Positions 9,028 to 40,692 are shown, counted from the stretch's first letter. The stretch: 46,344 nt of DNA from an uncultured bacterium (GCA_964485845.1 CAZAKP010000002.1:1-46344), one strand, 5' to 3'. Notes: generated by a model from the sequence alone, not told the origin. A program made the numbers and translations.

Positions 9028-9105
9028 GCGGGCGGCCCAGGTTACAGTGGCAGGCATCTACCGGTGCCCGAGCCCGGTCGAAAGAATAGAGAGTGAGGTG
9101 AATTG

Positions 9106-9570
9106 ATGGAAGACAGGCAGAAAGGTGCCCCGATTGAGATATTGCTGGTTGAGGACAATCCCGGCGACAGCGACCTGATCCTTGAGTTCCTCGAGAGCGC
9201 GCGGGTAACGAATCACGTCACCGTGGTCCGCGACGGCGAGGAGGCGATGGATTTCCTGCGCTGCCGGGGCCGCTTCGCCGGCGCCGTTCGCCCCGACCTG
9301 ATTCTGCTCGACCTGAACCTGCCGCGGAAGGACGGCCGCGAGGTGCTGGCCGACGTGAAGGCCGACCCATCGCTTGAGAGCATTCCCGTGGTCATCCTGA
9401 CGAGTTCGAGCGCCGAGACCGACATCGCCAAATCCTACAGCCTGAAAGCCAACTGCTACATCATCAAGCCGGTCGACCTCAGCCAATTCATGAACGTAGT
9501 CAAGTCGATAGAGGACTTCTGGCTTACGGTGGTCCGGCTGCCGACGCGGGGAGGAGCAAGCTGTGGCTGA
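9106..9570 (+). CDS. Single-domain response regulator (receiver)
   Basis: The N-terminus reads [13 protein letters not shown], with [17 protein letters not shown] and VVILTSS ... CYIIKP following. ATG 9106 is chosen; the ORF track begins at TTG 9103. Confidence 0.8.
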
Positions 9571-11023
9571 AGAACGAATCCAGCTTCTTTTGGTCGAGGA
9601 CAACTCCGGCGACGCGGACCTGGTTCGGGAGATGCTCGGCATGGCCGACGGCACGCGGTTCGACCTGTCGCGCGCGAGCCGGCTTTCCGAAGGGCTGACG
9701 CTCCTGGGTGCGGGCAAATACGATGCCGTGTTGCTCGACCTCGGGCTCCCGGACAGCTCCGGGCTCGATACCTTCTACGCGCTGCACGCGGCCGTGCCCT
9801 GGATTCCGGTGGTCGTCCTCACCGGCATGTCCGACTGGGAGACCGGCATCCACGCGGTGGCCGCCGGCGCCCAGGACTACCTCGTCAAGGGCTCGGTCGA
9901 CGGCGAAACGCTCGTCCGCCGCATCCGGTATTCGGTCGAGCGCAAGCGTGCCGAGCGCACCATCGCCGACGTGCGCGAACGCGGCCGGGAGATGGCCGAA
10001 CTCGTCATCTCCGCCAGCCGCGAGCGGGCGCTGCCCGGCCTGGTTTACGACGGCATGATAAGCTGCAATCCCCAGATGCTCGCGAACCTGGGTGTGGTGA
10101 GAAAGGTGGCCGACACCAACGTCCCGGTTCTCATCCGCGGCGAGAGCGGCACCGGCAAAGAGCTGGTGGCGCGGGCGCTTCATCAGTCCGGCCGGCGGAA
10201 GGAGATGCCGTTCATCGTCGTCAACTGCGCCGCGGTACCCGAGACTCTGCTGGAGGCCGAGCTCTTCGGCATCCACAAAGGGGTCGCCACCGGCGTCTCC
10301 GAACGCCGGGGCAAATTCGAAATCGCGAACGGTGGCACCCTGTTCCTCGACGAAATCGGCGACATGAGCCCGGCGCTGCAGGCCAAGCTGCTCAGGGTGC
10401 TGCAGGACAGCCTGGTTGAACGGGTCGGCGGCCACATCCCGGTGAAAGTGGACGTCCGGGTGATTGCGGCCACCAACCAGGACCTGCATCAGCGGATAGT
10501 TGCCGGCGCGTTCCGTAAGGACCTGTACTACCGGCTTAACGCCGTTGAGCTGGCCCTGCCGCCGCTGCGCGGCCGTACCGACGACATCCGGGAGCTGATT
10601 ACCTACTTCATCCGGAAGTTCAACGCCGAGTTCAACCGGGAGATTGGCGGAGCGGACCCGGAAGTCGTCCGGCACCTGGTCGCCCACGACTGGCCGGGCA
10701 ACATCCGCCAGCTCGAGCATGTTGTCAAGCGGGCGGTGGTCATGGCCGAGGGAAGCGCCATCCGGCTTCAGGACCTGCCCGAAGAATTCAAGACCGGAGT
10801 TGCGACGGCCAACGGCCAGGAACCCACCGGCCAGTTGCGGCACGTCCGGTCGTCAATCGAGGCCGAAGTGGGAGCCGACGTGGAGAAGCGGCTGCTGCTG
10901 GACTACATGGAGAAAGCGAACTGGAACGCTACCCAGGCAGCCAAGCTGGCCGGATACAGCCGCATGCACATTTACCGCCTGTTGCGCAGGCACGGCATTA
11001 CCCGGCCCAAACGTCAGAAGTAG
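9563..11023 (+). CDS. Sigma54-dependent Fis-family transcriptional activator (receiver + AAA+ sigma54-interaction domain + C-terminal HTH)
   Basis: Walker A reads [15 protein letters not shown], and the [16 protein letters not shown] motif is present. The receiver N-terminus reads [13 protein letters not shown]. The C-terminal HTH reads [32 protein letters not shown] precedes GTG 9563. Confidence 0.85.
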
Positions 11024-12159: not shown

Positions 12160-14115
12160 ATGATGCGGAAGCTCTGTTTGCCGGCGCTCGTGCTTGTCGC
12201 GTGCGTCTTCAGTCTGAGATTGGCTGCGGCCCAGGGTATGCTCGACCCGACGCAGCTCACGAAGTTCATTGACCCGCTGCCGATTCCGGCCGTGGTCCAG
12301 CCGACCGGGGTCTTTTCCGGCACGCCGTATTATGACGTGACGCTTGACCAGATGAACCAGCAGCTTCACAGCCAGCTCGCTCCGACCCCGGTCTGGGGCT
12401 ATAACCAGAGCTACCCGGGTCCGTCGTTCGTAGTCAGGAGCGGGCAGCCGGTGACCGTCAAGTTCACGAGCAACCTGCCGACCGAGCATCTGCTCGTGGT
12501 GGATACGAGCATCATGGGCGCGGAGCCGCCTAACCCGGAGGTGCGGACGGTGATACACCTGCACGGTGGCTCGGTCCCGCCCGAGTACGATGGCTGGCCG
12601 GAGGATTGGTTCGTGCCGGGCGGTTCGCAGACCTGCGAGTATCCGAACGGCCAGGACGCGGCCACGCTCTGGTACCATGACCACGCCATGGGCATCACGC
12701 GACTGAACACGATTGCCGGGTTCGCCGGTTTCTACATCGTCACGGACCCGGTCGACAGTGCCCTGAATCTGCCTTCGGGTCCGTACGATATCGGGCTCGC
12801 GCTGCAGGACCGCAAGTTTTACGACGACGGCTCGCTCTACTATCCGGCCCAGTGGACGATGACGTTCTACGGGGACGTCGCGCTGGTCAACGGCAAAATC
12901 TGGCCGCGGCTTGAGGTGGAACCGCGCAAGTATCGTTTCCGTTTCCTCGAAGGTTCAACCTGCCGTTATTACGACCTGAAGCTGCTTGAGTCCGATTCGC
13001 TCGGCCACGTGCAGGGCGACTCAGTTGGCGGCCCGGCGTTCAACGTCATCGCCTCGGACCAGGGCCTGCTCGAGCACCCGGTGAAACTGAACGACCCGCT
13101 CGACCCGGCGTCGCGGCGCCTGTCGATGGCTCCGGGCGAGCGCTACGATGTGGTGATAGACTTTGCCGGCCTCGAGGGCAGGGATTACCTGCTCCATAAC
13201 GACGCCCCGGCCGGCGGGTGCTGCGGTGGCCGCCGCGGCGGCGGGATGCGCGATTCGAGCGACCTGCCCGAAATCATGCTCTTCCACGTCAAGGATACGA
13301 CGGTGACCGACCCGAGCTCGCTGCCGGGCTTCCTGCGCTCGGTGCCGCGAACGCCCGAGTCGCTCGCGGTCCAAACCCGCGATATCACGCTTGGCATGCA
13401 GATGATGGGCCACGGCCGGATGATGATGTTACTCAACGACATGATGTGGGATGACCCGGTGATGGAGATGCCGATGCTGGGCTCGACCGAGATTTGGCGG
13501 ATGATAAACCTCACCTCCAGTTATCACCCGATGCACCTCCACCTCGTCAAGTTCCAGGTGCTCGACCGCCGGCCGTTTGACATGATGGAGTATCGCCGCA
13601 GCGGCCAGATCGTCTACACCGGCCCGGCCGAGGACCCGAGTCCGGAGGAGATGGGCTGGAAGGACACCTACATCTGCCCGCCCGGCTACGTCTCGCGGCT
13701 CATCACGACGTTTGAGCCATACTCCGGCATGTACGTCTATCACTGTCACATGCTGGAGCACGAGGACAATGCCATGATGCGGCCCTATGAGGTGATGGAC
13801 GACGCCGGTCTCGCGCGCGACGGCTTGCGACCGGTCGCCGAACCATTGCTTGGCCGGATTACACCGAGCCCGGCGCGCCGGCAGATGACGGTCGAGTTCG
13901 CGCTGCCCGGCTGCGGGCAGGCCCGGCTGGCCGTGTACAACTCGCTGGGTGCGCAAGTCAGGACCCTGGCCGCGGGTGAATTCGCGGCCGGGTCGCACCG
14001 CGCCGACTGGGACGCCACCGACGACGCCGGTGTTCGGGTCGCGGCCGGCACCTACTTCTGCAGGTTGACGACGACTGATGCCGTCAGGATACGTAAAGTG
14101 ACCCTCCTTCGTTAG
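12160..14115 (+). CDS. Multicopper oxidase (CotA/CueO-like, three cupredoxin domains) with Met-rich inserts and a T9SS-type C-terminal sorting domain
   Basis: A signal peptide is present. The copper ligand motifs are HLHGG, WYHDHAMGITR, HPMHLHLVKF and HCHMLEHEDNAMM. Met-rich segments read GMQMMGHGRMMMLLNDMMWDDPVMEMPMLG, and GGCCGGRRGGGM is also present. The C-terminal beta-sandwich tail reads GTYFCRLTT ... VRIRKVTLLR. RBS GGGAGGA precedes ATG 12160. Confidence 0.85.
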   Translation: MMRKLCLPALVLVACVFSLRLAAAQGMLDPTQLTKFIDPLPIPAVVQPTGVFSGTPYYDVTLDQMNQQLHSQLAPTPVWGYNQSYPGPSFVVRSGQPVTVKFTSNLPTEHLLVVDTSIMGAEPPNPEVRTVIHLHGGSVPPEYDGWPEDWFVPGGSQTCEYPNGQDAATLWYHDHAMGITRLNTIAGFAGFYIVTDPVDSALNLPSGPYDIGLALQDRKFYDDGSLYYPAQWTMTFYGDVALVNGKIWPRLEVEPRKYRFRFLEGSTCRYYDLKLLESDSLGHVQGDSVGGPAFNVIASDQGLLEHPVKLNDPLDPASRRLSMAPGERYDVVIDFAGLEGRDYLLHNDAPAGGCCGGRRGGGMRDSSDLPEIMLFHVKDTTVTDPSSLPGFLRSVPRTPESLAVQTRDITLGMQMMGHGRMMMLLNDMMWDDPVMEMPMLGSTEIWRMINLTSSYHPMHLHLVKFQVLDRRPFDMMEYRRSGQIVYTGPAEDPSPEEMGWKDTYICPPGYVSRLITTFEPYSGMYVYHCHMLEHEDNAMMRPYEVMDDAGLARDGLRPVAEPLLGRITPSPARRQMTVEFALPGCGQARLAVYNSLGAQVRTLAAGEFAAGSHRADWDATDDAGVRVAAGTYFCRLTTTDAVRIRKVTLLR

Positions 14116-15543: not shown

Positions 15544-15838
15544 GGCGACCGCGCCGCTGGCTTCTTCCGCTGCCGTCTAGCCTCAACAGTTCTGGTCGAG
15601 CACCAGGTGACTGCTGCCTTGCCGTTGCAGAACGGCCCCTGGTTCGCTCGACAGCGTCGTGAGGAGTGGCTCCGGCGAAGTGTAGCGCCGAACGTTACAC
15701 TGCCCAGGCATTTGTCAAAGCAGGTGACAGCCTGGACGGATTCCGATTCTCCGGCTGGCACTGCTGAGCGCAGCCGCGTGCATCTGCGCGGGCTGGCACG
15801 GGCTTTGCAGGATTGTCGTCTTCACGCCGGGAAGTAAC

Positions 15839-23638: not shown

Positions 23639-24277
23639 ATGAGTGGACCGTTTGATGCGATACTGGGGTTTCACAATGCCTTCAGAAGTGACATCAGTCT
23701 GATTGACGCGGCGGCGCTGGACCTGGCGCGCGGGAATCCGGACCGCAAGTCGCAACTCGAGCGCTACCGCTTCTTCAACGAGATACTGGCGTGGCACGCG
23801 CACGGCGAGGAACAGGCCGTGTTCCCGGCGCTCGACCGGGTCGCGCCATTGCTCTCCGAGCCGTACATCACCGACCACGGCGGACTCGACACGCTGTCGG
23901 ATGCCCTGAACGCCGCCGTGTCGGCCGGCGACAGCATCGCAACTGCCCGCGCGGCCGCCGCGTTCAAATTCCATCTCGACATCCATCTGCGTAAGGAAGA
24001 TGCCCAGGTGTACCGGCTGCTGCGGGAGCGTCTGGACGATGCCGAACAGGCCAGGGTCGTCGGTACCGTGGCCACGGCCGTGCCGCAAGCTCGATTCGCA
24101 GAGACGATCGGCTGGCTGTTTCCGCTGTTAGGCGACGCCGACCGCGAAAACGTGACCAGAGTAATGCAGACGCTGCTGCCCGCTCCAGCCTTCGCCGGAA
24201 CGGCGCAACTCATCCGCAAGGCGATTGGCGACGATTGGGACGAACTGGCCCGTCGCATTCCGTCGCTCGGACAATAA
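23639..24277 (+). CDS. Hemerythrin-like (HHE cation-binding) domain protein
   Basis: His/Glu ligand-type motifs are present: HNAFRSD, WHAHGEEQAVFPAL and HLDIHLRKEDAQVY. Confidence 0.7.
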   Translation: MSGPFDAILGFHNAFRSDISLIDAAALDLARGNPDRKSQLERYRFFNEILAWHAHGEEQAVFPALDRVAPLLSEPYITDHGGLDTLSDALNAAVSAGDSIATARAAAAFKFHLDIHLRKEDAQVYRLLRERLDDAEQARVVGTVATAVPQARFAETIGWLFPLLGDADRENVTRVMQTLLPAPAFAGTAQLIRKAIGDDWDELARRIPSLGQ

Positions 24278-28672: not shown

Positions 28673-30652
28673 CTAGCGAACCAGCGTAGCTCTAACCGTC
28701 TGTGAGTTCCTGGGCGTCTCCAGCTTGTAGAAGTACGTACCGGAGGCGACCTGAGAGCCGGTGTTGTCGGTCCCGTCCCAGACCGTTGAATGGAGGCCAC
28801 GATTGACAGCTCCATGGACCAGCGACTTGACTTCCTGGCCGAGCGAGTTGTAGACGCTCAGTTTGACGTGCTGCTCGATACCTGCGCTGTAGGCGATGCT
28901 GGCGCGGCCCCGGAAGGGCTCTGGCCCGCTCACGCTCAAGGCCGGCTCGACCGGCTCAAGCCCGGCAGCCATCATGCCGCCGCCTGGAGTCTGGTTGGGC
29001 AGGACGACCTGGTACGGCCGCATCATGTCGTTCTCTTCATGGGCGAGGATGTGGCAGTGGTAGACGTACTTGCCAAGCATGTTGAACTTGCTGGTTATGA
29101 TGCTCGTAACCATCCCGGGCGGACAGTTATACATGTCGTGGTTTCCTTCTTCCCAGGGGTCGGGCGGAACGGGCTGGTCCAGTAACACGAGCGTGTGGTC
29201 CAGCAGGAAGCGGTCGACGTCGAACTTCTGGCGGTTGATAATCTGGGCGTTCACCAGGTGCGTGTGCATCGGGTGCTCGTCCACCGTCGTGTTGATGAAC
29301 CGCCAGACCTCGGTGCAGTTGTAGGTCGGGAAGTCGGTGATGGGGGCCATGAAGTGCATGTCGTTGAGCATCACCATCATCGGGTTGCCCATCATGTCCT
29401 CCATCTCGTGCAGGAAGATGTCGCGGGTAAAGCAGGACTGCGCCGGGTTGTAGGTCGGCACATTGCCCGGGTGCATCGGAATCGTCGAATTGTCGACAAC
29501 CTGCGTATCCTTGACGCAGAACATGAAGAGCTCGGGAAGCGGGGTGTCGTCGGGGCCGCCGAAGCCATCGTAGGTACCGTCGAACGGTGCCGGCGCGTTG
29601 TTGGTCACGATGAAGCACTTACCCTGCTGGCCGGTGAAGTCGATGATGAGGTCGCGGCGGTCGCCCGGGCCGACGAGCAGTCGCGGCGAGTTGGTGACGT
29701 TCGGGTCGTTGAACTTGTAGGTGTTGTTCACGAGGCCCTGTTCGGTGCCGATCATGTAGATGGCCGGGCCGGGCGCGGAGTCGGGCGCTATGTAGCCTTC
29801 GTGGGTGGACTCGATGAGCTTCATCGACAGGAAGCGGTCATCGCACCCATTAAGGAACCGAATTCGGTACTTCCGCGGTTCGACGTCCTGCATCGGCCAT
29901 ATCTTGCCGTTGACGAGTGATACGTCGCCGAAGAACTCCGGTACCCACTCCGACGGGTAGTAGAGCTGACCATCCTCGGTAAACACCCGGTCCTGTGCGG
30001 CGATGCCGAGTTCGTACGGTCCCGCCGGCAGGTTCAGCCTCTTCTCGCGCGGGTCGGTGATGAGATAGAACCCCGCGAGCCCGGCATACGCGTTCAGCCG
30101 CGTGATGCCACAGGAGTGGTCGTGATACCAGAGTGTCGCTCCGGGCTGGGTGTTAGGATATTTGAAGACGGTCTCCTGTCCGGGGTAAATGAAGTCCATG
30201 CACCAGCCATCCGACGAGGCCTCGATGTCGGCAGCGCCGTGCAGGTGCGACACGAACCGCGATGACTGATTCCAGCCCGTGCCCATCATGACGTCAATCA
30301 TCGTATCGACATGGAACATGTGGCTGTCCGGCAGCTCGTTGATGTATCTCACAGCGATGGGCTGTGAATATGTCGCCACGAAAGTCGGCCCGGGGGTGAT
30401 GCCGTCGAACGTGAACACGTTGGTCGGGCCGAGGTCGCGGTGCATCTGCTGCGTGGCCGCCTTTATATGGACTTCGTACAACGGTCGCCCGTTGTAGCGG
30501 CCCACCGGCTGGCGAACCGGTGGCTGCGGCAGGGGGTCAACGTACTTGGTCAGCGTGGTCGGGTCCAGCAGCGGCTGAGCGACTGCCGGCGTCACGCTGA
30601 AGAGGACGATGGGCAGGAGCACTACCCATGCGAGTACTGCGGTCTTTTTCAC
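28673..30652 (-). CDS. Multicopper oxidase paralog (CotA/CueO-like) with a T9SS-type C-terminal domain
   Basis: The copper ligand motifs are HLHGAADIEASSDGW, WYHDHSCGITRLN, HPMHTHLVNAQI and HCHILAHEENDMM. A Met-rich segment reads HEMEDMMGNPMMVMLNDMHFM. The tail reads GTYFYKLETP ... VRATLVR. The start is GTG 30652 with RBS AAGGAGAG. Confidence 0.85.
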   Translation of the reverse strand: MKKTAVLAWVVLLPIVLFSVTPAVAQPLLDPTTLTKYVDPLPQPPVRQPVGRYNGRPLYEVHIKAATQQMHRDLGPTNVFTFDGITPGPTFVATYSQPIAVRYINELPDSHMFHVDTMIDVMMGTGWNQSSRFVSHLHGAADIEASSDGWCMDFIYPGQETVFKYPNTQPGATLWYHDHSCGITRLNAYAGLAGFYLITDPREKRLNLPAGPYELGIAAQDRVFTEDGQLYYPSEWVPEFFGDVSLVNGKIWPMQDVEPRKYRIRFLNGCDDRFLSMKLIESTHEGYIAPDSAPGPAIYMIGTEQGLVNNTYKFNDPNVTNSPRLLVGPGDRRDLIIDFTGQQGKCFIVTNNAPAPFDGTYDGFGGPDDTPLPELFMFCVKDTQVVDNSTIPMHPGNVPTYNPAQSCFTRDIFLHEMEDMMGNPMMVMLNDMHFMAPITDFPTYNCTEVWRFINTTVDEHPMHTHLVNAQIINRQKFDVDRFLLDHTLVLLDQPVPPDPWEEGNHDMYNCPPGMVTSIITSKFNMLGKYVYHCHILAHEENDMMRPYQVVLPNQTPGGGMMAAGLEPVEPALSVSGPEPFRGRASIAYSAGIEQHVKLSVYNSLGQEVKSLVHGAVNRGLHSTVWDGTDNTGSQVASGTYFYKLETPRNSQTVRATLVR

Positions 30653-30950
30653 TGTTTCTCTCCTTGTTGTGCGGTCTTGGTTGCGGCTGCATTCTCCGTC
30701 CCTCCCCGTGACCGTACTCTGGGACCGCCTCTTTTCGTCCCACGCGTCAACAGCCGGCCAGCGCCCCGGTGCAGCATCCGGTCCGCGCTTCGGTTCCTCG
30801 GGCGTACGCGAAGACTTCTGCAGGTCTCGTGCCCACCGACTAGCACTAAGCCTGCGCCCACCGGGCGCCGGGACAAGCAGCCACCTTGGCCGTTACAATG
30901 CACGCACGTGTAACCCCGCGTGTTCCGCGAACTGAACCCAACCGGGCGCG

Positions 30951-31853
30951 ATGAAGGTCTACCTAACCGTGAAGATTGATGCCAAGCCCTCGGCCGCGAA
31001 AGCGCATCGAGCGCCACAGGAAGTAGCGACCGCTCCCCACGCAATCTGGACCGGCACCGTCAGTTTCGGCTCCATCGCGTTTCCGGTAAGGCTGCGTCCG
31101 GCGGTGCGCGAACGGCGGGTTCAGTTCAACCTGCTCCATAAGTCCGACCTTGTCAGGCTGAAACGACAAATGGTCTGTTCGCTCGAAGGCGCGCCCGTTC
31201 CGCCCGAAGACCAGGCCCGTGGCTTCGAATTGGAGGGAGGCAGGTACATCCTGGTCGACCCGGCCGAATTGGAGAAGGCGGAGCCGGAAGCAAGCCGGGC
31301 GATAGCGGTACACGAGTTCGTGGGCGTTGCCGAAATCGACCCGGTGTATTTTGAACGGGGATACTATCTTGAGCCGGCGGAGGATGCAGGGAAAACGGGC
31401 GACAGTCCCCCGGCGCGCCTGCTCCGGACTCAGCGCGGGTCAGTCTCCGTTTTCCCGGAACTGGCGGCGGTGCTGGAAGAGGAGCGCCTCGCGGGCATCT
31501 GCACGTGGGTGATGCGCAAGCGGGCTTACGTCGGCGCGATTCTGTCGGCCGGCGGCGTGCTGCGGCTGAACGTCATTCGCCATCCGGGCGAGGTCATCAA
31601 GGTAGCAAGGCCGGCGGCCGGTTCGGCGCTGTCGGACCGCGAGCTTGCGGTCGGCAGCGAACTCATCAACCAGATGACCGGGAAATTCCAGCCGGAGAAG
31701 TTCACGAACAGCCACCAGCAACGGCTGCGGCAGCTCATCGAGCGCAAGGCGCACGGGCAGAAGATTCGCCTCGTCACGCCGAAGCGCCGCGCTGCCACCG
31801 AGCCGGATAAGCTGCTTTCCGTCCTCGAAGCCAGTCTGAGGAAAGTGGCATGA
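30951..31853 (+). CDS. ku: Ku protein (NHEJ DNA-end-binding), copy 1
   Basis: IWTGTVSFGSIAFPVRL ... ERGYYLEP ... is present. There is a ~30-aa N-terminal extension before the conserved IW.G.ISFG motif. Confidence 0.8.
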   Translation: MKVYLTVKIDAKPSAAKAHRAPQEVATAPHAIWTGTVSFGSIAFPVRLRPAVRERRVQFNLLHKSDLVRLKRQMVCSLEGAPVPPEDQARGFELEGGRYILVDPAELEKAEPEASRAIAVHEFVGVAEIDPVYFERGYYLEPAEDAGKTGDSPPARLLRTQRGSVSVFPELAAVLEEERLAGICTWVMRKRAYVGAILSAGGVLRLNVIRHPGEVIKVARPAAGSALSDRELAVGSELINQMTGKFQPEKFTNSHQQRLRQLIERKAHGQKIRLVTPKRRAATEPDKLLSVLEASLRKVA

Positions 31854-32731
31854 GGAAAGTAAAAAGGACGAAGGACAAAGGACGAAGTCCGGACCGGCGG
31901 ACGGCTCTACCGGCGAAGGTCACGGGCGCGTTTCGACCGACCAGCGACACGAGCCCGGAAGTCTGGCGCGGGACAATCAGCTTCAGTCTTGTCGCCATCC
32001 CGGTCCGGCTGGTTGAGGCAATATCGCCCGACCGGGTTTCCTTCCGGCTGCTGCATCGGAAAGACTACGCGCCGCTCGTGAGCCGGATGCTCTGCCCGAA
32101 CGAAGGGAAGATAGTTCCGAGCGAGGAGATTGTCCGGGGATTTGAGTATAAGCCGGGAAGCTACATCCCGATGACCGCGGCCGAGCTGGAGTCGGTCACC
32201 CCGGAGCGCAGCCGCACCATCGAGGTCACCGACTTCGTTCCCGCCGCGGATGTCGATACGGTCTACTTCGACTACCAGTATTACCTCCAGCCGATGAAGG
32301 GCGGAGAGAAGCCGTATCGCCTGCTGGTCGAGGTGCTGAAGCGCGCCGGGAAAGCCGGCGTCGCGAGCCTCGTGCTGGCCGAACGCGAATACCCGGCGCT
32401 CATCCGGAGCGTGAACGGGCTCCTGGCCGTGAATACGCTGCACTACCCGGACGAAATAGCACCCGTAACAGGGGTAAACACGGAGACGCGGGGACACGCA
32501 GACGCGGAGAAGGAGCGCATCAGGCGGGCGGTGCGGAAGATGGCTGCGAAGTTCGAACCCGATAAGTACGCGGACGAGCGGCGGGCGAAGATCGTGGCGC
32601 TCTTGAAGCGGAAGCTGGCGGGCGAATCGCTGGTGCAGGCGCCCGAGACCGAGGAGACACAAGGCCGGGCGGGTTCGGACCTTGAGGAGCTGCTCGAGGC
32701 CAGCATCGCCAAGGGCGGGAAGAAGGCGTGA
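31850..32731 (+). CDS. ku: Ku protein, copy 2 (tandem paralog) with a Lys/Arg-rich N-terminal extension
   Basis: VWRGTISFSLVAIPVRL ... DYQYYLQP is present. The N-terminus reads MRKVKRTKDKGRSPDRR. An 8-nt repeat (gagacgcg gggacacg cagacgcg) lies at ~32470-32500. The ATGA overlaps the copy 1 stop. Confidence 0.8.
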   Translation: MRKVKRTKDKGRSPDRRTALPAKVTGAFRPTSDTSPEVWRGTISFSLVAIPVRLVEAISPDRVSFRLLHRKDYAPLVSRMLCPNEGKIVPSEEIVRGFEYKPGSYIPMTAAELESVTPERSRTIEVTDFVPAADVDTVYFDYQYYLQPMKGGEKPYRLLVEVLKRAGKAGVASLVLAEREYPALIRSVNGLLAVNTLHYPDEIAPVTGVNTETRGHADAEKERIRRAVRKMAAKFEPDKYADERRAKIVALLKRKLAGESLVQAPETEETQGRAGSDLEELLEASIAKGGKKA

Positions 32732-33675
32732 GCGCAAGGCCGAGGACCGCGGCGCGCCGGACGGCCAGGCGGCCGCAGCGCGAGACGTTTGCCCGGGTCG
32801 GCGGAATCGAGCTGCCGCTTACCAATCTCGAGAAGGACCTCTATCCTGCCTACGGTTTCACCAAAGCCCGGGTGCTCGACTACTATCGGCGGATTTCCAG
32901 GTTCATCCTTCCGCACCTGCGCGACCGGGCGCTGACCCTTAAGCGCTATCCCGACGGCACCGGCGGGCCTTTTTTCTTCGAGAAGCGCTGCCCCTCGTCC
33001 CGGCCGGGCTGGGTTCACCTCGCGAGCGTTCCCGCGCTCGACGGCCAGAGCATTACAGCCTGCGTCGTCAACGACCTCCGCACCCTGATGTGGGTGGAGA
33101 ATCTTGCCTCGATTGAACTCCACGTGCCGCTGGCGCGGGTCGACTCGCCGCACGCGCCGGACTCGCTCGTCTTCGACCTTGATCCCGGCCCGGGCGCGGG
33201 TATGGCCGAATGCTGCCGGGTCGCGCTCATCATCCGCCACATGCTCGAACGGCTGCGCGTGTCGTGCCTCGTCAAGACCTCCGGGATGAAAGGGCTTCAC
33301 GTCCTCGTTCCGCTGAACCGCCAGGAGGTGACGTTCGAGCGGACGCGCGACTTCTCGAAGGCGCTCGCCGCGCTGATACAGCGCGCCAATCCCGAACTCG
33401 TGACAACCCTCGTCGGGAAGGCGGAAAGGGAACGCAGGGTATTCATCAACTGGGCCCAGAACAGCTCGGCCAAGACAATGGTGGCCGTGTATTCGCTTCG
33501 CGCGCGCGAGGCGCCGGCCGTGTCCTGTCCGGTCACGTGGCCCGAGGTCGAAGGCGGAGCGGCGGGCCGCGCCAAACTCACCATCCTTCACACCGACGCC
33601 GTGCGCCGAGCGGAGAAGCTGGGCGACCTTTTCCAGGACGTACTGACGCGGCGCCAGGCCCTTCCCCACCTGTAG
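32728..33675 (+). CDS. Stand-alone LigD polymerase/primase (PolDom) domain protein
   Basis: LTNLEKDLYPAYGFTKARVLDYY ... LKRYPDG ... FFFEK ... FDLDPGPG ... KTSGMKGLHVLVPL ... VFINWAQNSSAKTMVAVYSLRAR is present. No ATP-ligase domain lies in the window. Confidence 0.8.
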   Translation: MSARPRTAARRTARRPQRETFARVGGIELPLTNLEKDLYPAYGFTKARVLDYYRRISRFILPHLRDRALTLKRYPDGTGGPFFFEKRCPSSRPGWVHLASVPALDGQSITACVVNDLRTLMWVENLASIELHVPLARVDSPHAPDSLVFDLDPGPGAGMAECCRVALIIRHMLERLRVSCLVKTSGMKGLHVLVPLNRQEVTFERTRDFSKALAALIQRANPELVTTLVGKAERERRVFINWAQNSSAKTMVAVYSLRAREAPAVSCPVTWPEVEGGAAGRAKLTILHTDAVRRAEKLGDLFQDVLTRRQALPHL

Positions 33676-33758: not shown

Positions 33759-36278
33759 CTACTGGATCTTTACTAGCTTCTGGTCGGCGGTGAACTCTTT
33801 TGATTCAAACCGCACAAAGTATGTACCGGCGGCAAGAGTCCTCCCGGTTGCGCTCCGGCCGTCCCAGCCAACGGTGTAGTGGCCGGGTTCGGCATCGTGC
33901 GCGACAAGCGTCCGGACCGCCCGGCCCTCGGCATCGTACACCCGTATTGCCAGTGATGTCTTCTTCGGGATGTCGTAGCTGACGCTTGTTACATCACTCA
34001 TTACCCCGGACCCCCCGACTTCCAGATGGAAGGCGTCGGGGTGGGCAATGGGATTGGGCTGGAGGTTGACCTGGCAGGCGGTCGAGAGGGCATACTGGCC
34101 GGTCGCTTTGTTATCGGCCCAGGTTACGATGGCGTAGTAGTCGTCAACCAGCGCGTGGAAGTGGATGTACTCGCCCTCGCCCGGGCCGTTCACGTCCGCA
34201 ACGGCCACCGCCTGGGAGCGGTCGACGTAGTACGGGGCGTCGGGTGACCGGAATATTGCCATTCCCAGATTGACGTTGCCGCCCGCGACCGACAGCGTAA
34301 AGCAGGTATCGGTGGCCGGGGTCGCGTGGTATTCACATACTCGAATGACGTCGTTGTCGTTCCATTGGTACGGCCCGTTGACCCGCTCGGCGTCGAGGGT
34401 GGTACCGCTCGTTGCCTGGGTGAACTCGACGGTGGCGGTGGTGGAATCGAAGTCGCGGAGCTTTACGCCCATCGTATCGAGCGGGCTGTGGTTTCCGTCG
34501 GAGACGCAGAAATCGGTCTGCGGGCCAGGCCGGTCATCGGCCGACCGGGCGCGCAGCGTCAGGAAGTTCGCGTCCCACAGGTCGAGCTGCCAGTTGCCGC
34601 CTGAGCGGATGCCAACGGCGTTCCAGTGCGGCCGGGTCTGGCCGAACTTGAGGAGCGTGTCCGATTTGACCTCGGCCGGGACGTCGTCGGCAAGGACCGT
34701 GGCCCGGTAGCGCAGCGGGTCGAACGAAAGGATGCCCATCGCCGTGCCCCAGTTCTGAACCTCGCGGCAGTACTCGCCGGCTATCCACGAAACGTTGTCC
34801 GCGTTGGGGTCGAGCGCGATGGATGTGACGCGGCCGAACGGGGCCGGGTCGCTCGTCCCGTACGACGCGAGGCCGGGTCTGAGAATGGCCGGGGCGGAAA
34901 GCGTCTCGCCTTCGTGCCAGCCGGCATAGCCCATGCCCGGGTAAATGTTCGGGCTTGAGACGTTGAACGCGAAGTAGGCATTGCCGCGTCCGTCAACGGC
35001 GACCGACGGGTTGAAGTAGCTCACGAGCCCGTTGCCAAGTGTCTTGTCCAGCCGGGTCGCGAAACCGGGTTGCGGCATACTGCCCGCGGTGTTTTCCAGC
35101 ACGAGATACCGGATGGCGGCCACGCCATCGCCGGTCCACCGGTAGGCTTCGTTGAAAGTGCAGTACAGCCTGCCGTTCGCGTACTCAAGCGACTGGAGCC
35201 GTGCCGGCCCGGTCGCAAGCCGGATGTCGGTGCCGGGCTGCGCCGCGTCCGGCGGTGCCTGGAAGTAGCGGATTTTAGCCGCGGGCAGCCGCTCCAGCGC
35301 CGGGGTGGTCGCGGTAGCGTGTACCTGCCATACCGTCACGTGTGAGCCGGAATCCGGCGCCACATCGGCCAGGTAGAAATCCGCGGCCCCGGCGGGTGCC
35401 CGCATGGGGCGAACGCTCGACGCGGGCCGGCCGTTCTCGTCCTTCAGTCCCCAGAAGTCGGCAAAGGACCGCAGCCTGCCCTCGTAGAGTTCGTGCTTGT
35501 CGAGCACCCGGACCCGGGCGTACTGATAGGCAGGGTCGTTCGGGGAGTAGAGGTTGGCGGTGAGGACGACGAATACGCTGTTATAGCCCAGCGCCTGGTC
35601 AGCGGCAATGCCGGCGGCGGACATGACACCGCCGCTGCTCGCATCCGTCTTCCATACGTACCATGAGCCCATGGCCGACGGCGCAAGCGATGCGGCAATC
35701 AGCCAGTACGATTCCACCGTCTGGTGGCCGGTGACTGCCGGGTTCAGGGCGAGGGCGGTGATTACCCAGCGTTGCTCCTTCATGTCAAAGAAGACCTGGG
35801 GCTGGTAGATGGCCGCCGGCGGGTTCACCGGGCGAAACAGGTCCCGCAGGGAACCGGCGGCGAGTTTGGCCCCGGACTTGTCGAAGACCGCCCAGGTCGA
35901 ATTGATGACTTCCACCACTTCGGAAAGGCCGGCGGCGATTGCCGGGTCGGGCGTGCCGAACTCGGTCTGGTCCAGGCCTTCGAGCCGTGATAGAACCGGC
36001 ACTCCGCCGGCATTGCTCGGCGGCGGCAGCTGGATGAGCGCGTTCGCGGTCGGGGCCACGGCCGGCGCTTGGGCCTTCAGTGCCCGAACAAGCGTCTGGT
36101 CCGGCATCGGCACCGGCGGCGGCATCGCCGTCACTCCAACGCCGCCGGTGGCCTGACTAAGCGAAACCACCGCGGGGCCCGCGACCACGGTGCCCTGAAC
36201 CGGTCCTTCGAAATCCGCGCCCAGTAGCGGCATGATCGCCGCGGCGACCGCAAGCGCGAGGGTGACTGCCCTGGTCAT
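33759..36278 (-). CDS. Large secreted protein with a T9SS-type C-terminal sorting domain, function unknown
   Basis: A signal peptide follows ATG 36278 (MTRAVTLALAVAAA), with RBS GGAGGT upstream. The C-terminal tail reads GTYFVRFESKEFTADQKLVKIQ. No catalytic motif was recognised. Confidence 0.6.
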   Translation of the reverse strand: MTRAVTLALAVAAAIMPLLGADFEGPVQGTVVAGPAVVSLSQATGGVGVTAMPPPVPMPDQTLVRALKAQAPAVAPTANALIQLPPPSNAGGVPVLSRLEGLDQTEFGTPDPAIAAGLSEVVEVINSTWAVFDKSGAKLAAGSLRDLFRPVNPPAAIYQPQVFFDMKEQRWVITALALNPAVTGHQTVESYWLIAASLAPSAMGSWYVWKTDASSGGVMSAAGIAADQALGYNSVFVVLTANLYSPNDPAYQYARVRVLDKHELYEGRLRSFADFWGLKDENGRPASSVRPMRAPAGAADFYLADVAPDSGSHVTVWQVHATATTPALERLPAAKIRYFQAPPDAAQPGTDIRLATGPARLQSLEYANGRLYCTFNEAYRWTGDGVAAIRYLVLENTAGSMPQPGFATRLDKTLGNGLVSYFNPSVAVDGRGNAYFAFNVSSPNIYPGMGYAGWHEGETLSAPAILRPGLASYGTSDPAPFGRVTSIALDPNADNVSWIAGEYCREVQNWGTAMGILSFDPLRYRATVLADDVPAEVKSDTLLKFGQTRPHWNAVGIRSGGNWQLDLWDANFLTLRARSADDRPGPQTDFCVSDGNHSPLDTMGVKLRDFDSTTATVEFTQATSGTTLDAERVNGPYQWNDNDVIRVCEYHATPATDTCFTLSVAGGNVNLGMAIFRSPDAPYYVDRSQAVAVADVNGPGEGEYIHFHALVDDYYAIVTWADNKATGQYALSTACQVNLQPNPIAHPDAFHLEVGGSGVMSDVTSVSYDIPKKTSLAIRVYDAEGRAVRTLVAHDAEPGHYTVGWDGRSATGRTLAAGTYFVRFESKEFTADQKLVKIQ

Positions 36279-36794
36279 AGTTACCTCCATCAGGCGACTC
36301 GGGCGTCAACCTGACGGCCGGCCGCCTCATTCAAAGCTCAACTCTCTCTCGACCGCGCCTTCGTGAACACGACCAACGGCGCCGAAAACGTCCGGCGCCG
36401 CGCTCACACGGTGGCTATGTGCATTATGCGTGCCGCTCAGTTCGCCGTGGTGGGAGGGAACTCAGTTCCAGTCTTGGCAATGAGCCGGTCAAGGCCCGAT
36501 GCTCGGCGCGTAACTCCCGAGGTTACATATTGCCCGGATTATACTTCGCCCGTTGCACACTTCAGCGGCAAGATTCCGGATTCCTGCCTCTGCCGTCCAT
36601 CTCTCCGACTTCCAACGCCTGCTTATGCCGTGCCTTGGTGCCTTGCATACCGGGCATGTTTCCTGCAAGCATTCGGCCATGCGTCCGCGCGCAGGCGCGG
36701 TTTGATTAAGGCACGGCCAGGTGGCGTACGGGGTATCCGACCAGGTTACGCGACATCGGGCCGACGTCCGGCAGTATTGGAGAAAGGAACTGCA

Positions 36795-37190
36795 ATGGAG
36801 AATTTGAGCAGCCACATTCAGCGGGCAGACTGGCAGAAGGAAAAGCACGTCCCGGTAATCGAGTGCCCGGAAAAGGTCGCGGCCGACACCGAGTTCGCGG
36901 TCAAGGTGAGCCTTGGCAAACAGATCGCCCACCCCAACACAACCGAGCACCACATCCGCTGGATAGACCTTTACTTCTGCGCGGAAGGGGCGAAGAACAC
37001 GTCCCAGGTGGGCCACTTTGAGTTCACGCTGCACGGCGAGTCGGTCGAGGGTCCCAACCAGGGGCCGGCCTACTCAAGTCACGCCGTCACCGCGTACATG
37101 AAGACCAAAAAGCCGGGATGCCTGCATGCGCTGGCCTACTGCAACATCCACGGACTTTGGGAGAGTACAAAAGAGCTGAAACTGACCTAG
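36795..37190 (+). CDS. Superoxide reductase (1Fe neelaredoxin / desulfoferrodoxin centre-II type)
   Basis: The EKHVPVIE and YCNIHGLWES motifs are the SOR iron ligands. The ORF track places it within 36363..37190; the start is taken at ATG 36795. Confidence 0.75.
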   Translation: MENLSSHIQRADWQKEKHVPVIECPEKVAADTEFAVKVSLGKQIAHPNTTEHHIRWIDLYFCAEGAKNTSQVGHFEFTLHGESVEGPNQGPAYSSHAVTAYMKTKKPGCLHALAYCNIHGLWESTKELKLT

Positions 37191-37199
37191 GAGGCGCAA

Positions 37200-37550
37200 A
37201 TGCCCGAATTCCTGAACCCTTTCCCCGGCCGCGTGCCGGACCGCAAGCTTGGCAAGGAAGAGCTGGTGCGGGCGCTCCGGCTTGACCTCGCGGCCGAGCA
37301 CGAGGCGGTACATCTCTACCTCGCTCACGCCGACGCCTGTGAAGACCCGCTGGCCGAGGCAGTGCTGCGCGACATTGCCGACGAGGAGCGGAAGCACATC
37401 GGCGAATTCATGCGCCTGATACTGCTCCTGACCGGCAACGAGCAACAGCTCACCGACTCAGGCGCGCAGGAGGTGGAGCAGATGCGGTCGACACTGGCGG
37501 GTAATAAGAAAACGACGGTCGGTTCGCTGATCGAGACGAAGGAGGCGTGA
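37200..37550 (+). CDS. Encapsulin cargo: ferritin-like protein (EncFtn/Flp type) with a C-terminal targeting peptide
   Basis: The ferritin-like ExxH motifs are AAEHEAVH and DEERKHIGE. The C-terminus TVGSLIETKEA matches the encapsulin cargo-loading peptide consensus. RBS AGGAGG is present. It lies immediately upstream of the shell gene. Confidence 0.7.
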   Translation: MPEFLNPFPGRVPDRKLGKEELVRALRLDLAAEHEAVHLYLAHADACEDPLAEAVLRDIADEERKHIGEFMRLILLLTGNEQQLTDSGAQEVEQMRSTLAGNKKTTVGSLIETKEA

Positions 37551-38341
37551 TGGGCAGCGACTTCGAGAACCGGGCTCTCTCGGGCATTGGTGACAAGACG
37601 TGGGAAGTGCTGGAGCGGGCCGCGGTCGGGGCGGCCAAAAGCCAGCTCTCGGCGCGGCGGTTCATTTCGATTGAGGGGCCGTACGGCCTTGGGGTCCAGG
37701 CAGTGCCCCTGGCCGACGAACATTCGCCGGATGGCCACGCGGTCGCCCGGCTCCTCTCGCTCCACTATCTCTTTCGTACCTTCGGCATGAGCCTGCGCGA
37801 CATCGCCGTCTACGAGCGGGAGTCGCTCACGCTCGATGTCGGGCCGGCGGCGAGCGCCGCCATCGAGTGTGCCCGGGCCGAAGAGGAACTCATCTTTTCG
37901 GGCAGCAAAAAGGCCCCCGGGCTCATATCCTCCGCCGGCGTCGAACGGCACAAACTCGCCTCGTGGCAGCCTTTGGGCAAGGCGGCGGCCGACGCGGTGG
38001 AAGCGGTGAACAAGCTCGACGCCGCCGGGTTCCACGGGCCCTACGCGCTCGCGCTCGCGCCTGCCCGCCACAACCTTTTGTACCGGCTCTATCCCGACGG
38101 CAACGGCACCGAGCTCGGGCACATCGAGAAGATTGTCGGCGGCGGCGTGTTCAAGAGCCCGGCCCTGAAGACGGGCGGTGTGCTGCTTGCCACCGGCGAG
38201 CAGTTCTCGGCCATCGTCATCGGCCAGGACCTCTCCGTCGGCTACGTCGGCCGGGTCGGACCGGACGTCCAGTTGTCGGTTTCAGAGAGCATCGCTCTCT
38301 ACCTGCGCGAACCCAAGGCCGTCTGTGCTTTGGAAGATTGA
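37550..38341 (+). CDS. Family-1 encapsulin nanocompartment shell protein (Linocin M18 / HK97 fold)
   Basis: It is 263 aa. RRFISIEGPYGLG and GQDLSVGYVGR correspond to the T. maritima encapsulin motifs RKFVDVEGPYGWE and GQDLSIGYEDR. The start ATG overlaps the cargo stop (gTGATGg). Confidence 0.8.
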   Translation: MGSDFENRALSGIGDKTWEVLERAAVGAAKSQLSARRFISIEGPYGLGVQAVPLADEHSPDGHAVARLLSLHYLFRTFGMSLRDIAVYERESLTLDVGPAASAAIECARAEEELIFSGSKKAPGLISSAGVERHKLASWQPLGKAAADAVEAVNKLDAAGFHGPYALALAPARHNLLYRLYPDGNGTELGHIEKIVGGGVFKSPALKTGGVLLATGEQFSAIVIGQDLSVGYVGRVGPDVQLSVSESIALYLREPKAVCALED

Positions 38342-38446
38342 TTACGACCCTGCGTCTACCACCCAGCGTGGGGTCGTTCCCCAAAAGGGAGGGAGAGCGC
38401 CAACCGGCGCTCTTCTCTTGGCAGTTGGGCTGAAAGTGAGGTAACT

Positions 38447-38568
38447 ATGAACCCGATATTGAACCACAGAGCACACAGAGAACACCGAGGCTCGCGTGCG
38501 GAGTCCAGACTCCGGACCTTTGCCCGCTCTGTGAACTCTGTGCCCTCCGTGGTTGATCCTGTCCCCAT
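38447..38568. repeat. MITE-like palindromic repeat element, copy A
   Basis: The left arm is CCCGATATTGAACCACAGAGCACACAGAGAACAC. The right arm gctctgtgaactctgtgccctccgtggttgatcc is its imperfect reverse complement. It is followed by TGTCCCCATC. It produces the spurious NPILNHR ORF. Confidence 0.6.
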
Positions 38569-38738
38569 CCGGACACCGGTTTCGGCCGATCTGCGTTCTC
38601 ATCTGGCTCTGTGGTCGGCCGACCGTGGGCTCGGGGAGGAACGCCCGGACGCTACCGAAGGCTCGGTGCAGACCCGCGCCTTCAGTCGACTCTGGCGAGC
38701 TGCCTGGTCGGGCCCGACCTCGAATCAGCGGAGAAGAC

Positions 38739-40523
38739 GTGGCGGATGAAATCTTCACGCTGATTGCCGGCGGCAAGGCCGGCTACGGCATCCGCAAAGC
38801 CGGCACCTCGGCCGCGCGGCTCTTCGCGCGCATGGGAAGGCGAGTCTTCCAGATGGACGACTATCCGAGCCTGATCCGCGGCGGCCACAACTTCTTCTCC
38901 GTATCGACGTCCCGCAGTCAGATAACCAGCCACTACCTGAAGGCCGACCTCGTGGTCTGCCTCGACCAGCGCTCGGTCGACGCTCACCGCGACCATCTCA
39001 AGCCGGGCGGCTTCATGGTGTTCGACGACAAAGCCCGCCTGCCCGACTCGTCGCCAATCGCCAATCACGCATCGCTCCCCATCTCCACCGAGGCAAAGAA
39101 GTACCCGGACCCCGACCTGGTAACCGGCGTCGCGGTCGCGGCGGTACTTGCTTCCGCTATCGGCATGTCGCACGACGAGCTGATGCGCTTCATCGAGCAG
39201 GAGTACCCGCGCGGCACCGAGAATAACAAAGCCTATGCGAGCGCCATCTATAGCGCGGCCGAGCCCGCGCTTGCCGGCCGGTTCAAGCTGGAACGCGGCG
39301 ACAGGCAGCGGCCGATGCTCTCGGGCAACGATGCCATCGCTCTCGGCGCGGTCGCCTCCGGGCTCGACGCCTTCTTCGCCTACCCAATGACCCCGGCGTC
39401 CTCCATTCTCACGTTCCTCGCCGCCAGGGCCGGCGAACTTGGCACCGTCGTGGTCCATCCCGAGAACGAAATCGGGGTCATGAACATGGCCATCGGCGCG
39501 GCCGCGGCCGGCGCCCGGACCATGGTCGCGTCAAGCGGCGGTGGCTTCGCGCTGATGCAGGAAGCGTTCTCGCTCGCGGGCATGGCCGAGGTGCCGCTTC
39601 TCTGCGTGCTGTCCTCGCGCCCCGGGCCGTCGACCGGCCTGCCTACCTACACGTCCCAGGGCGACCTCGACTTTGCCTTAAACCAGGGGCACGGCGAGTT
39701 CCCGCGGGTCGTGGCGTCGCCGGGCAGCATCGAGGAAGCCTACCTGCTCGCGGCAGAACTCATGAGCCTGGCCTGGGAATTCCAGACGCCGGCTATACTC
39801 CTGACCGAAAAGCACCTCTCCGAAAGCCGGATGACCGTTGAACTGGACCTCGAAAAGGCTGCCTGGGCCGAGGAATTTGGGAAAACGGGGGAAATGGGGA
39901 CTGGAATGGGGGAAATAGGGACAGTCCCTGAAGGTACAGTCCCTATTTCCCCGTACCAGCGCTACCTCGACACCCCGACCGGAATCTCGCCGCTCGCCTT
40001 CCCGCCATCCAAAGAGCTCATCAAATGGAACAGCTACGAACACGACGAAGCCGGACTCACAACCGAAGACGCGGGGATGTCGGCGCGGATGGCCGACAAA
40101 CGCCGCCGCAAAGGCGAGTGCCTTGCCGCCCACATCCGGGTCCTGAATACAGTGAACGTGTATCCTGCGCCTCATTCGGGCGGGGACATGACCCAATCGT
40201 CCTCGATTGGGATCGTGTCCCAGGCCGGCGCGGATTCACCCGTCATCATCACCTATGGCTCAACCACGCTCAGCGTGCTCGAGGCCCTGCGCTACGGCGG
40301 CATCCGGGCCACCGTTGTCCAGCCGCGGTTCCTCCGGCCGCTGCCCGAGTGGGAGCTTGCCCGCTACGGGGGAAAGCACGTAACCGTGGTCGAAGAGAGT
40401 GTAACCGGCCAGTTCGCAACGCTGCTCAAAGAGAAGGCGGGCATTACCGCCGAACGGGTTATAAAACGCTACGACGGCCGCCCCTTCTCCCCGGACGACC
40501 TCGCCGAGCAACTCAGGAGTTAA
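38739..40523 (+). CDS. korA: 2-oxoacid:ferredoxin oxidoreductase alpha subunit (gamma-alpha fused, KorA-type)
   Basis: The N-terminal gamma-like domain reads IAGGKAGYGIRKAG ... LIRGGHNFFSVS. The alpha-domain motif reads SGNDAIALGAVASGLDAFFAYPMTPASSI. The start is GTG 38739 with GGAG upstream. A 75-nt palindromic insertion lies at 39878-39952. Confidence 0.8.
   Translation: MADEIFTLIAGGKAGYGIRKAGTSAARLFARMGRRVFQMDDYPSLIRGGHNFFSVSTSRSQITSHYLKADLVVCLDQRSVDAHRDHLKPGGFMVFDDKARLPDSSPIANHASLPISTEAKKYPDPDLVTGVAVAAVLASAIGMSHDELMRFIEQEYPRGTENNKAYASAIYSAAEPALAGRFKLERGDRQRPMLSGNDAIALGAVASGLDAFFAYPMTPASSILTFLAARAGELGTVVVHPENEIGVMNMAIGAAAAGARTMVASSGGGFALMQEAFSLAGMAEVPLLCVLSSRPGPSTGLPTYTSQGDLDFALNQGHGEFPRVVASPGSIEEAYLLAAELMSLAWEFQTPAILLTEKHLSESRMTVELDLEKAAWAEEFGKTGEMGTGMGEIGTVPEGTVPISPYQRYLDTPTGISPLAFPPSKELIKWNSYEHDEAGLTTEDAGMSARMADKRRRKGECLAAHIRVLNTVNVYPAPHSGGDMTQSSSIGIVSQAGADSPVIITYGSTTLSVLEALRYGGIRATVVQPRFLRPLPEWELARYGGKHVTVVEESVTGQFATLLKEKAGITAERVIKRYDGRPFSPDDLAEQLRS
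39878..39952 (+). repeat. In-frame GGGAC-family palindromic insertion inside korA (encodes GKTGEMGTGMGEIGTVPEGTVPIS)
   Basis: GGGGAAATAGGGACAGTCCCT gaaggt ACAGTCCCTATTTCCCC forms a 14-bp perfect inverted repeat. The same AAATAGGGAC / GTCCCYATTT motif occurs at 55-68, 2783-2798, 2890-2941 and 38559-38568. Confidence 0.65.
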
Positions 40524-40574
40524 GAATGGGTACCAGGATTCTCAGGTTCGGGGTTCTGCCTCGTCTTCCTGCCC

Positions 40575-40665
40575 TTCGTGCCTTTGTGTCTTTGTGGTTG
40601 AATCCGCCTCCTGCCCGCCGGGCATTTTGCATTTTGATATTTGCATTCTGCAATTTGACTTGCCC
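40575..40665. repeat. Partial copy B of the repeat element in the 170-nt korA-korB spacer
   Basis: ctttgtgtctttgtggttgaatcc is the reverse complement of GGATTCAACCACAAAGACACAAAG, matching the CACAGAG terminus. The internal motif GCATTCTGCAATTTGACTTGCC lies at 40643-40664. Confidence 0.55.
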
Positions 40666-40692
40666 TCGTTCTTGGTCAGCTCCGGAGGTCGC

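Follow-up and report, generated by a model that had tools for sequence, protein, structure and literature searches.

A superoxide reductase gene precedes ferritin-like cargo and encapsulin shell genes in a conserved, putatively sigma-54-controlled operon of an uncultured bacterium

Introduction

Why does a gene for a superoxide reductase (SOR) lie directly in front of the genes for an encapsulated ferritin and its protein shell? The question is raised by a 46,344-nucleotide (nt) stretch of DNA from an uncultured bacterium (GCA_964485845.1, CAZAKP010000002.1:1-46344), referred to as a whole as the window, in which genes for a SOR, a ferritin-like cargo protein and a family 1 encapsulin shell follow each other on one strand (Table 1). 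The known pairs of encapsulins with Flp- or EncFtn-type ferritins have been proposed to serve iron storage and to act in oxidative stress (PMC8346489). An earlier annotation made from the DNA alone, here called the sequence-only reading, had suggested that the trio combines superoxide detoxification with iron sequestration. We consider it likely that the three genes form one transcription unit, which would protect an oxygen-sensitive bacterium during oxygen intrusion by two combined defences, and which would presumably be induced by oxidative stress. This is based on the identities of the genes, their catalytic and targeting motifs and tight coupling, a recurrent synteny and conserved regulatory motifs.

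Results

Gene identities and coupling

The three open reading frames (ORFs) lie where the sequence-only reading had placed them, with a gap of 9 nt between the SOR and cargo genes and a single nucleotide shared by the TGA stop codon of the cargo gene and the ATG of the shell gene; the word "fused", which had been used for this arrangement, is correct with regard to adjacency but not in the sense of a gene fusion. A Shine-Dalgarno sequence precedes each start (AAAGGA for SOR, GGAGG for the cargo and AAGGAGG for the shell). The longest ORF containing the SOR opens at a GTG at position 36363, upstream of the ATG at 36795; the latter is the start chosen in public gene calls, and homology to solved SORs sets in at residue 4 of the resulting 131-amino acid form. 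From the gene layout and its conservation we infer that SOR, cargo and shell are co-transcribed as one unit.

Profile searches placed all three products above curated cut-offs, in agreement with the identities assigned before, and all motifs quoted at that time were found again, i.e. EKHVPVIE and YCNIHGLWES in the SOR, TVGSLIETKEA in the cargo, and RRFISIEGPYGLG and GQDLSVGYVGR in the shell. The SOR reached 113 bits on PF01880 (cut-off 22.2, 1e-32) and 114.4 bits on TIGR00332 (cut-off 61.9, 2.9e-33). On the 2Fe-SOR model TIGR00320 (dfx_rbo) it remained at 43.8 bits, below the cut-off of 146.9, and 2Fe-SOR structures align with its catalytic domain only. Its closest solved relatives are both 1Fe enzymes, from T. 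maritima (2amu, 4e-43) and Pyrococcus furiosus (1do6, 5e-39), with which it shares the ligand motifs EKHVP, HPNTTEHHIRW and CNIHG, and whose His4-Cys ligands and Glu-Lys pair align with its own. The residues E16, K17, H18, H46, H52, C116 and H119 are invariant across 12 encapsulin-linked SORs. Judged by these profiles and alignments, the enzyme is a canonical 1Fe-SOR of the neelaredoxin class without an N-terminal desulforedoxin domain.

The cargo scored 103.7 bits on the EncB family model NF058679 (EncB_fam, cut-off 90), whereas it fell below the cut-offs of the R. rubrum-type EncFtn models TIGR04535 (68.7 bits, cut-off 125) and PF22277 (EncFtn-like, 21.4 bits, cut-off 27) and slightly short of that of PF02915 (22.7 bits). 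Among solved structures, M. xanthus EncC (7s8t, 8e-14) and P. furiosus EncFtn (5n5e, 9e-12) come closest, and the cargo residues E33, Y40, E63 and H66 align with ferroxidase-centre residues of both; the ferroxidase-centre pattern of a two-helix half-ferritin (Glu, Glu-x-x-His and a conserved Tyr) is present. The protein presumably has ferroxidase activity and mineralises iron. Its tail, TTVGSLIETKEA, contains the targeting peptide TTVGSLIE at the C-terminus, so that the cargo-loading peptide proposed in the sequence-only reading is indeed in place, and a T[VI]GSL tail is kept in 73 of 84 homologous cargos.

The third product was readily recognized as an encapsulin shell (NF041155, encap_f1, 209.8 bits, cut-off 100; PF04454, 202.7 bits, cut-off 24.3, 7.5e-60), and, as expected for family 1, a cargo gene encoding a C-terminal targeting peptide lies directly 5' of the shell gene. 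The AlphaFold model of the shell (pLDDT 87.5, pTM 0.83) has an HK97-type fold and matched solved encapsulins in Foldseek with TM values of 0.85-0.87 (E about 5e-27). By both sequence and fold, shells of the T=4/T=3 class (B. methanolicus, Q. thermotolerans and M. xanthus EncA) ranked ahead of T=1 shells, the sequence search giving 133 bits for 6nj8, 111 bits for EncA and 74 bits for T. maritima. The length of 263 amino acids is T=1-like, with solved T=1 chains of 258-273 amino acids compared to 278-301 in T=3/T=4 shells. The assignment to family 1 was thus confirmed, whereas the predicted particle of about 24 nm (T=1) is uncertain, since sequence and modelled fold are nearer to T=3/T=4 shells.

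Synteny of superoxide-scavenging and encapsulin genes

The recurrence of this gene order was surveyed from both of its sides. On the shell side, 80 species-representative genomes were taken by shell similarity, and a locus was judged if its cargo gene was preceded by 500 nt or more of sequence; the window lineage itself was not returned from this set, in which the best match is 52% identical. On the SOR side, the best 80 metagenome relatives of the SOR provided 66 loci with at least 450 nt of downstream sequence. The order was found to be recurrent. A SOR gene lies directly 5' of the cargo gene in 17 of the 30 judgeable bacterial species loci, these 17 all being labelled Chloroflexota (Anaerolineae or Dehalococcoidia), and it lies 3' of the shell gene in one more (Bipolaricaulaceae); SOR is absent from all 38 judgeable archaeal loci. 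Among the metagenome SORs, the five with an identity of at least 73% to that of the window are all followed by cargo and shell, and a cargo gene downstream of SOR occurs at 11 loci among the best 80 metagenome relatives. The earlier statement that linkage to SOR is not a standard arrangement is therefore true of the searchable literature but not of nature, where it is met in more than half of the bacterial loci and in all members of the window lineage.

In the window the conserved layout comprises a divergent gene for an 843-amino acid secreted protein, SOR, cargo, shell and a 2-oxoacid:ferredoxin oxidoreductase, and it is unchanged in relatives whose shells are 86% and 74% identical. In neighbour-joining trees, SOR, cargo and shell are grouped in a similar way, with the window lineage as a separate deep branch. 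The neighbours of SOR-linked loci in Chloroflexota include genes for rubrerythrin, peroxiredoxin (AhpC), an NROR-like protein of the rubredoxin-reductase type, a flavodiiron-type protein, the iron transporter VIT1 and DJ-1, which together represent the standard oxygen-defence gene set of anaerobes; one locus (L012) has the order rubrerythrin, SOR, cargo, shell, VIT1.

The association extends to a second cargo type and a second enzyme. Three more SOR loci (L099, L105 and L119) adjoin another encapsulin system, whose cargo is a double ferritin, the shells of L105 (204-3390) and L119 (557-3573) having 283-286 amino acids and their cargos 328-370. In L119, DJ-1 is followed by SOR, double ferritin, shell and a rubrerythrin-like gene, and L105 has the order double ferritin, shell, molybdopterin oxidoreductase and SOR; in L099 (1-2049), whose shell gene is cut by the contig end, the order shell, molybdopterin oxidoreductase, SOR is visible. 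An Fe/Mn superoxide dismutase (SOD), which is not homologous to SOR, occupies the place that SOR has elsewhere: it lies immediately 5' of cargo and shell in Methanoregula-type archaea (L028, L049, L058 and L089, about 3993-4577) and immediately 3' of them in the planctomycete-like loci L078 (SOD at 5960-6679) and L172 (SOD at 4964-5686), the shell of L078 grouping with the window shell clade in the tree. A superoxide scavenger is thereby part of the locus in 23 of 68 judgeable species loci. A functional link is supported most strongly by the recurrence of two unrelated enzymes beside the same two genes, and from these gene neighbourhoods we conclude that the linkage of SOR to cargo and shell is not due to chance.

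Regulatory elements of the operon

The 504-nt intergenic region 5' of the SOR gene is only about 62% identical among clade members, and two conserved blocks stand out in it. One is the palindrome GTAAC-N7-GTTAC, which is unique within the window (0 expected in shuffles) and occurs in exact form 5' of the SOR gene in the window, L007, L008, L092 and L094, with a spacer sequence that differs each time; L091 and L093 have variants with one mismatch. The other is a sigma-54-type -24/-12 element. The strict pattern GGCA[CT]G-N4-5-[CT]TGC[AT], which has a background rate of 0.0104 per kb per strand in the 2.2 Mb of loci fetched, lies 69-145 nt 5' of the SOR ATG in five of seven clade members, and the other two have one-mismatch variants. 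The window, L007, L008 and L094 match both strict patterns, and in these four sequences palindrome and -24/-12 element are 113-143 nt apart. The features of a sigma-54 promoter are present, namely GG/GC at -24/-12, canonical spacing and an inverted repeat about 100-150 nt upstream. It therefore seems that the SOR operon has a sigma-54 promoter, which would be activated from the GTAAC-N7-GTTAC site, a view which is supported by conservation within otherwise poorly conserved intergenic DNA and not by the consensus score. A scan for sigma-70 promoters between 36200 and 38800 gave no site.

On its 3' side the operon is followed by a double RNA hairpin with a minimum free energy of -47.1 kcal/mol (z = -4.7; 0 of 200 shuffles fold as well), of which the block GGGAGGGAGAGCGCC-loop-GGCGCUCU is kept in L007, L008, L092 and L094. 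A simple terminator scan missed these hairpins, and its terminator-like matches were not above those in shuffles. The structure probably ends or stabilises the operon transcript. The conserved sigma-54-type promoter, the GTAAC-N7-GTTAC site and the double hairpin at the 3' side are new here, and so is the greater likeness of the shell to T=3/T=4 than to T=1 shells.

Further elements were noticed in the flanks of the operon. Another sigma-54-like sequence, CGGCACGCATAATGCA, faces the divergent gene for the 843-amino acid secreted protein, which has a FlgD_ig/type IX secretion system (T9SS) tail and no further Pfam domain; this clade-conserved gene and the SOR operon may both use the GTAAC-N7-GTTAC site. 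In the predicted 5' leader of SOR, immediately behind the putative transcription start, there is a GC hairpin followed by TTTGATT, which is partly kept in L008 and could be a leader stem-loop or attenuator. Downstream of the double hairpin comes a small ORF that has a Shine-Dalgarno sequence of its own and extends into the start of the oxidoreductase alpha gene. Its product, which is without a match in Pfam, is kept in L007, L008, L092 and L094 with the motif EG[AS][IV]QTR..R[LF]W..[AS]W, and in the window the ORF has an extra stretch of about 115 nt with inverted repeats, which looks like a small inserted element. The alpha protein has 594 amino acids compared to about 551 in most homologues, and its coding sequence contains a palindrome with 21-nt arms (90% complementary), which may be an in-frame inserted element. 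The spacer between the alpha and beta genes varies among contigs with an identical encapsulin gene (about 170, 400 and 500 nt; L001 8975-9377, L002 8784-9285, L003 6158-6326 and the window), which indicates strain-level insertions.

Lineage and wider window

As a metagenome contig, the window is found again in several samples with the same genes. The best named matches of the oxidoreductase adjacent to the operon are from candidate division WOR-3 (71% identity), followed by Zixibacteria (about 57%). Because of these matches and the many T9SS/FlgD_ig tails, the sequence suggests that the window lineage belongs to the Fibrobacteres-Chlorobi-Bacteroidetes (FCB) group rather than to the Chloroflexota; it is possibly WOR-3-like. 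Searches of the whole window with Rfam at gathering thresholds and with a tRNA scan gave no match.

Elsewhere in the window, an NtrC-type activator gene, which has no demonstrable link to the SOR operon, belongs to a large two-component cluster that begins with a CheB-CheR-PAS fusion. A perfect sigma-54 consensus, TGGCACGGGCTTTGCA, precedes a Tad-like pilus gene, and a second good match lies upstream of one of two genes for multicopper oxidases with T9SS-type C-terminal domains. A gene for a hemerythrin-domain protein is also present, and two Ku genes and a LigD primase-polymerase gene lie shortly upstream of the operon neighbourhood.

Table 1 Features of the SOR operon and of the wider window. 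Positions are counted from the first nucleotide of the window.
Feature	Position	Strand	Remarks
SOR gene	36795-37190	+	131 amino acids, ATG to stop
EncB/EncFtn-type ferritin-like cargo gene	37200-37550	+	116 amino acids, ATG start
Family 1 encapsulin shell gene	37550-38341	+	263 amino acids, ATG start
Palindrome GTAAC-N7-GTTAC	36510-36526	.	divergent intergenic region; candidate upstream activator site for an enhancer-binding protein
Sigma-54-type -24/-12 element, GGCATGTTTCCTGCA	36653-36667	+	128 nt 5' of SOR ATG
Double RNA hairpin	38344-38429	+	directly 3' of shell stop; second stem followed by UCUUCUCUU
Sigma-54-like sequence	36420-36435	-	faces divergent gene
Gene for 843-amino acid secreted protein	33759-36290	-
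GC hairpin and TTTGATT	36685-36700	+	predicted SOR 5' leader
Small ORF	38447-38749	+	after double hairpin
Inverted repeats in small ORF	38463-38488, 38590-38615
Oxidoreductase alpha gene	38739-40523
Palindrome in alpha gene	39909-39952
Alpha-beta spacer	40524-40692
Two-component cluster	79-11023
NtrC-type activator gene	9563-11023
Multicopper oxidase gene	12160-14115	+
Perfect sigma-54 consensus	15794-15809	+	30 nt 5' of Tad-like pilus gene (15839)
Hemerythrin-domain protein gene	23639-24277	+
Multicopper oxidase gene	28673-30652	-
Second sigma-54 match	30819-30833	-	about 170 nt upstream of the multicopper oxidase gene at 28673-30652
Two Ku genes and LigD primase-polymerase	30951-33675	+

Discussion

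Gene identities, the targeting peptide and the gene context support the combination of superoxide detoxification and iron sequestration that the sequence-only reading had proposed. In the scenario that we consider likely, the 1Fe-SOR, free in the cytosol, would convert superoxide to hydrogen peroxide, while the ferritin-like cargo would be carried by its C-terminal TVGSL peptide into the family 1 shell, where Fe2+ would be oxidised and Fe3+ laid down as a mineral. This uptake of iron would remove the Fenton partner of the peroxide made by SOR, and cargo and shell may also capture iron that superoxide strips from Fe-S enzymes, for example from the neighbouring oxidoreductase.

An alternative would be that SOR itself resides inside the compartment or docks on the shell via a non-canonical signal. 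The points in favour of this are that SOR and cargo gene are tightly coupled in translation and that there are precedents for secondary cargos in other family 1 systems (PMC11202242). However, neither a [VIL]G[SD]L motif, including T[VI]GSL-like forms, nor an N- or C-terminal extension was found in any of the 21 encapsulin-linked SORs, whose ends coincide residue for residue with those of free solved SORs, and closely similar SORs mostly occur without an encapsulin. Having neither targeting motif nor extension, an encapsulated SOR was rejected as extremely improbable, and since the targeting peptide is absent from every linked SOR, as had been stated for the one in the window, the enzyme probably acts outside the shell, its location presumably being the cytosol. 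It is also very unlikely that the adjacency is functionally meaningless and that an independent SOR gene happens to lie upstream of a standard cargo-shell pair. Such a view would fit a generic SOR and the many cargo-shell pairs that lack one, but the order recurs in the window lineage and in Chloroflexota, with variant orders elsewhere, SOR also accompanies a second encapsulin type, SOD can replace it, the spacings are operon-like, and the conserved promoter elements lie 5' of SOR and not between SOR and the cargo gene.

More far-reaching is the idea that the two activities are coupled by substrate, which we regard as unlikely. The peroxide produced by SOR or SOD would then be the physiological oxidant of the encapsulated ferroxidase, and the shell would represent a Fenton-safe peroxide sink in which superoxide is finally turned into water at the expense of Fe2+, functionally replacing rubrerythrin. 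Consistent with this, both of the non-homologous enzymes beside cargo and shell yield H2O2, the cargo belongs to the di-iron ferritin-like proteins and has a fold related to that of rubrerythrin (see the PF02915 score above), and the trio of the window lineage has no adjoining rubrerythrin or peroxiredoxin, whereas several Chloroflexota versions do. The presence of rubrerythrin or AhpC genes in several SOR-linked loci argues against it, however, since these loci do not obviously lack a dedicated sink for peroxide, and plain co-regulation of two stress defences accounts for the synteny equally well. We likewise give little credence to the generalisation that scavenger and encapsulated ferritin form a convergently assembled module, with SOR in anaerobic bacteria and SOD in Methanoregula-type and planctomycete-like organisms, in which H2O2 would be consumed in the shell as oxidant of Fe2+, the compartment would be a Fenton-safe sink for both peroxide and iron, and the scavenger would shield the mineral core from superoxide-driven reductive release of iron.

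Several observations weigh against a dedicated, commonly regulated defence operon. About 40% of the bacterial relatives and most of the archaeal ones have no superoxide enzyme beside cargo and shell, and the Chloroflexota cases may descend from one or few ancestral events. Around 52 of the 66 judgeable metagenome loci with a similar SOR are not linked to an encapsulin; a specialised subfamily of encapsulin-partner SORs was rejected for this reason, and the enzyme is taken to be generic because most equally similar SORs are unlinked. A search of the window for rubredoxin motifs gave no match, and the electron donor of SOR is not encoded there. With regard to regulation, a loose sigma-54 consensus allowing three mismatches matched the window 43 times compared to 44.7 expected matches, i.e. 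at chance level, the window contains no rpoN gene, and no activator gene adjoins the operon. Finally, transcription may read through into the downstream small ORF and the oxidoreductase genes.

The operon resembles known systems in different respects. With the family 1 iron-storage encapsulin of M. xanthus, EncA with EncB, EncC and EncD (PDB 7s8t, 7s5k, 7s20 and 4pt2), it shares a cargo that passes the NCBIfam model of the EncB family and has EncC as its nearest solved relative, the TVGSL-type targeting peptide and a shell for which T=1 shells are more distant than EncA-type T=3 and T=4 shells. In contrast to EncA, the window shell has 263 instead of 287 amino acids, and the two are only about 30% identical; moreover, there is a single cargo gene, directly 5' of the shell gene, and the SOR gene comes first. 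The Flp/EncFtn-encapsulin pairs of T. maritima, R. rubrum and Haliangium ochraceum (T=1) likewise have the cargo gene directly 5' of the shell gene and a C-terminal loading peptide, but the window cargo is below the EncFtn-like and TIGR04535 cut-offs, T=1 shells are more distant matches, and these operons have been described without the SOR gene that is present here. The T. maritima SOR gene (2amu) is presumably located away from the encapsulin gene of that organism. As in the SOR-rubredoxin-rubrerythrin clusters with which anaerobes such as P. furiosus and Desulfovibrio defend themselves against oxygen, a canonical 1Fe-SOR stands beside a di-iron ferritin-like protein; unlike there, this partner is a shell-targeted putative ferroxidase instead of a peroxidase, and rubredoxin is not part of the window. 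In P. furiosus under oxygen stress, encapsulin particles are physically enclosed by rubrerythrin tubules (bioRxiv 10.1101/2025.03.19.643997).

The closest precedent in print is a locus of Lentisphaerae bacterium GWF2_45_14 (A0A1G0XXJ5) in a supplementary table of Andreas and Giessen 2021 (PMC8346489). Similar to the window, it contains, in this order, genes for neelaredoxin, ferredoxin, a rubrerythrin-type cargo and an encapsulin, with a SOD and an NtrC-type sigma-54 activator just downstream; it differs in the intercalated ferredoxin gene and in its phylum. The locus is tabulated without comment, the words "superoxide" and "desulfoferrodoxin" are absent from the main text of that survey, and the SOR type is not mentioned there, whereas accessory genes are given for other family 1 operon types. 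In the searchable literature, which covers few subscription papers, we found no account of a synteny of SOR or SOD with encapsulin genes, although an earlier depiction may exist. What we describe is thus a known system in an operon variant that we found undescribed, made up of ordinary members of known protein families, and as such sensible rather than surprising.

Encapsulated ferritins are usually treated as iron stores, and their part in oxidative stress is defined loosely. The recurrence of SOR or SOD as a neighbour in several phyla and with two cargo types provides genomic evidence that in anaerobes this compartment serves the defence against oxygen intrusion. The adjacency names a testable partner enzyme for the encapsulated ferritin, and the putative sigma-54 promoter, together with its candidate activator site, offers a route to the inducing signal.

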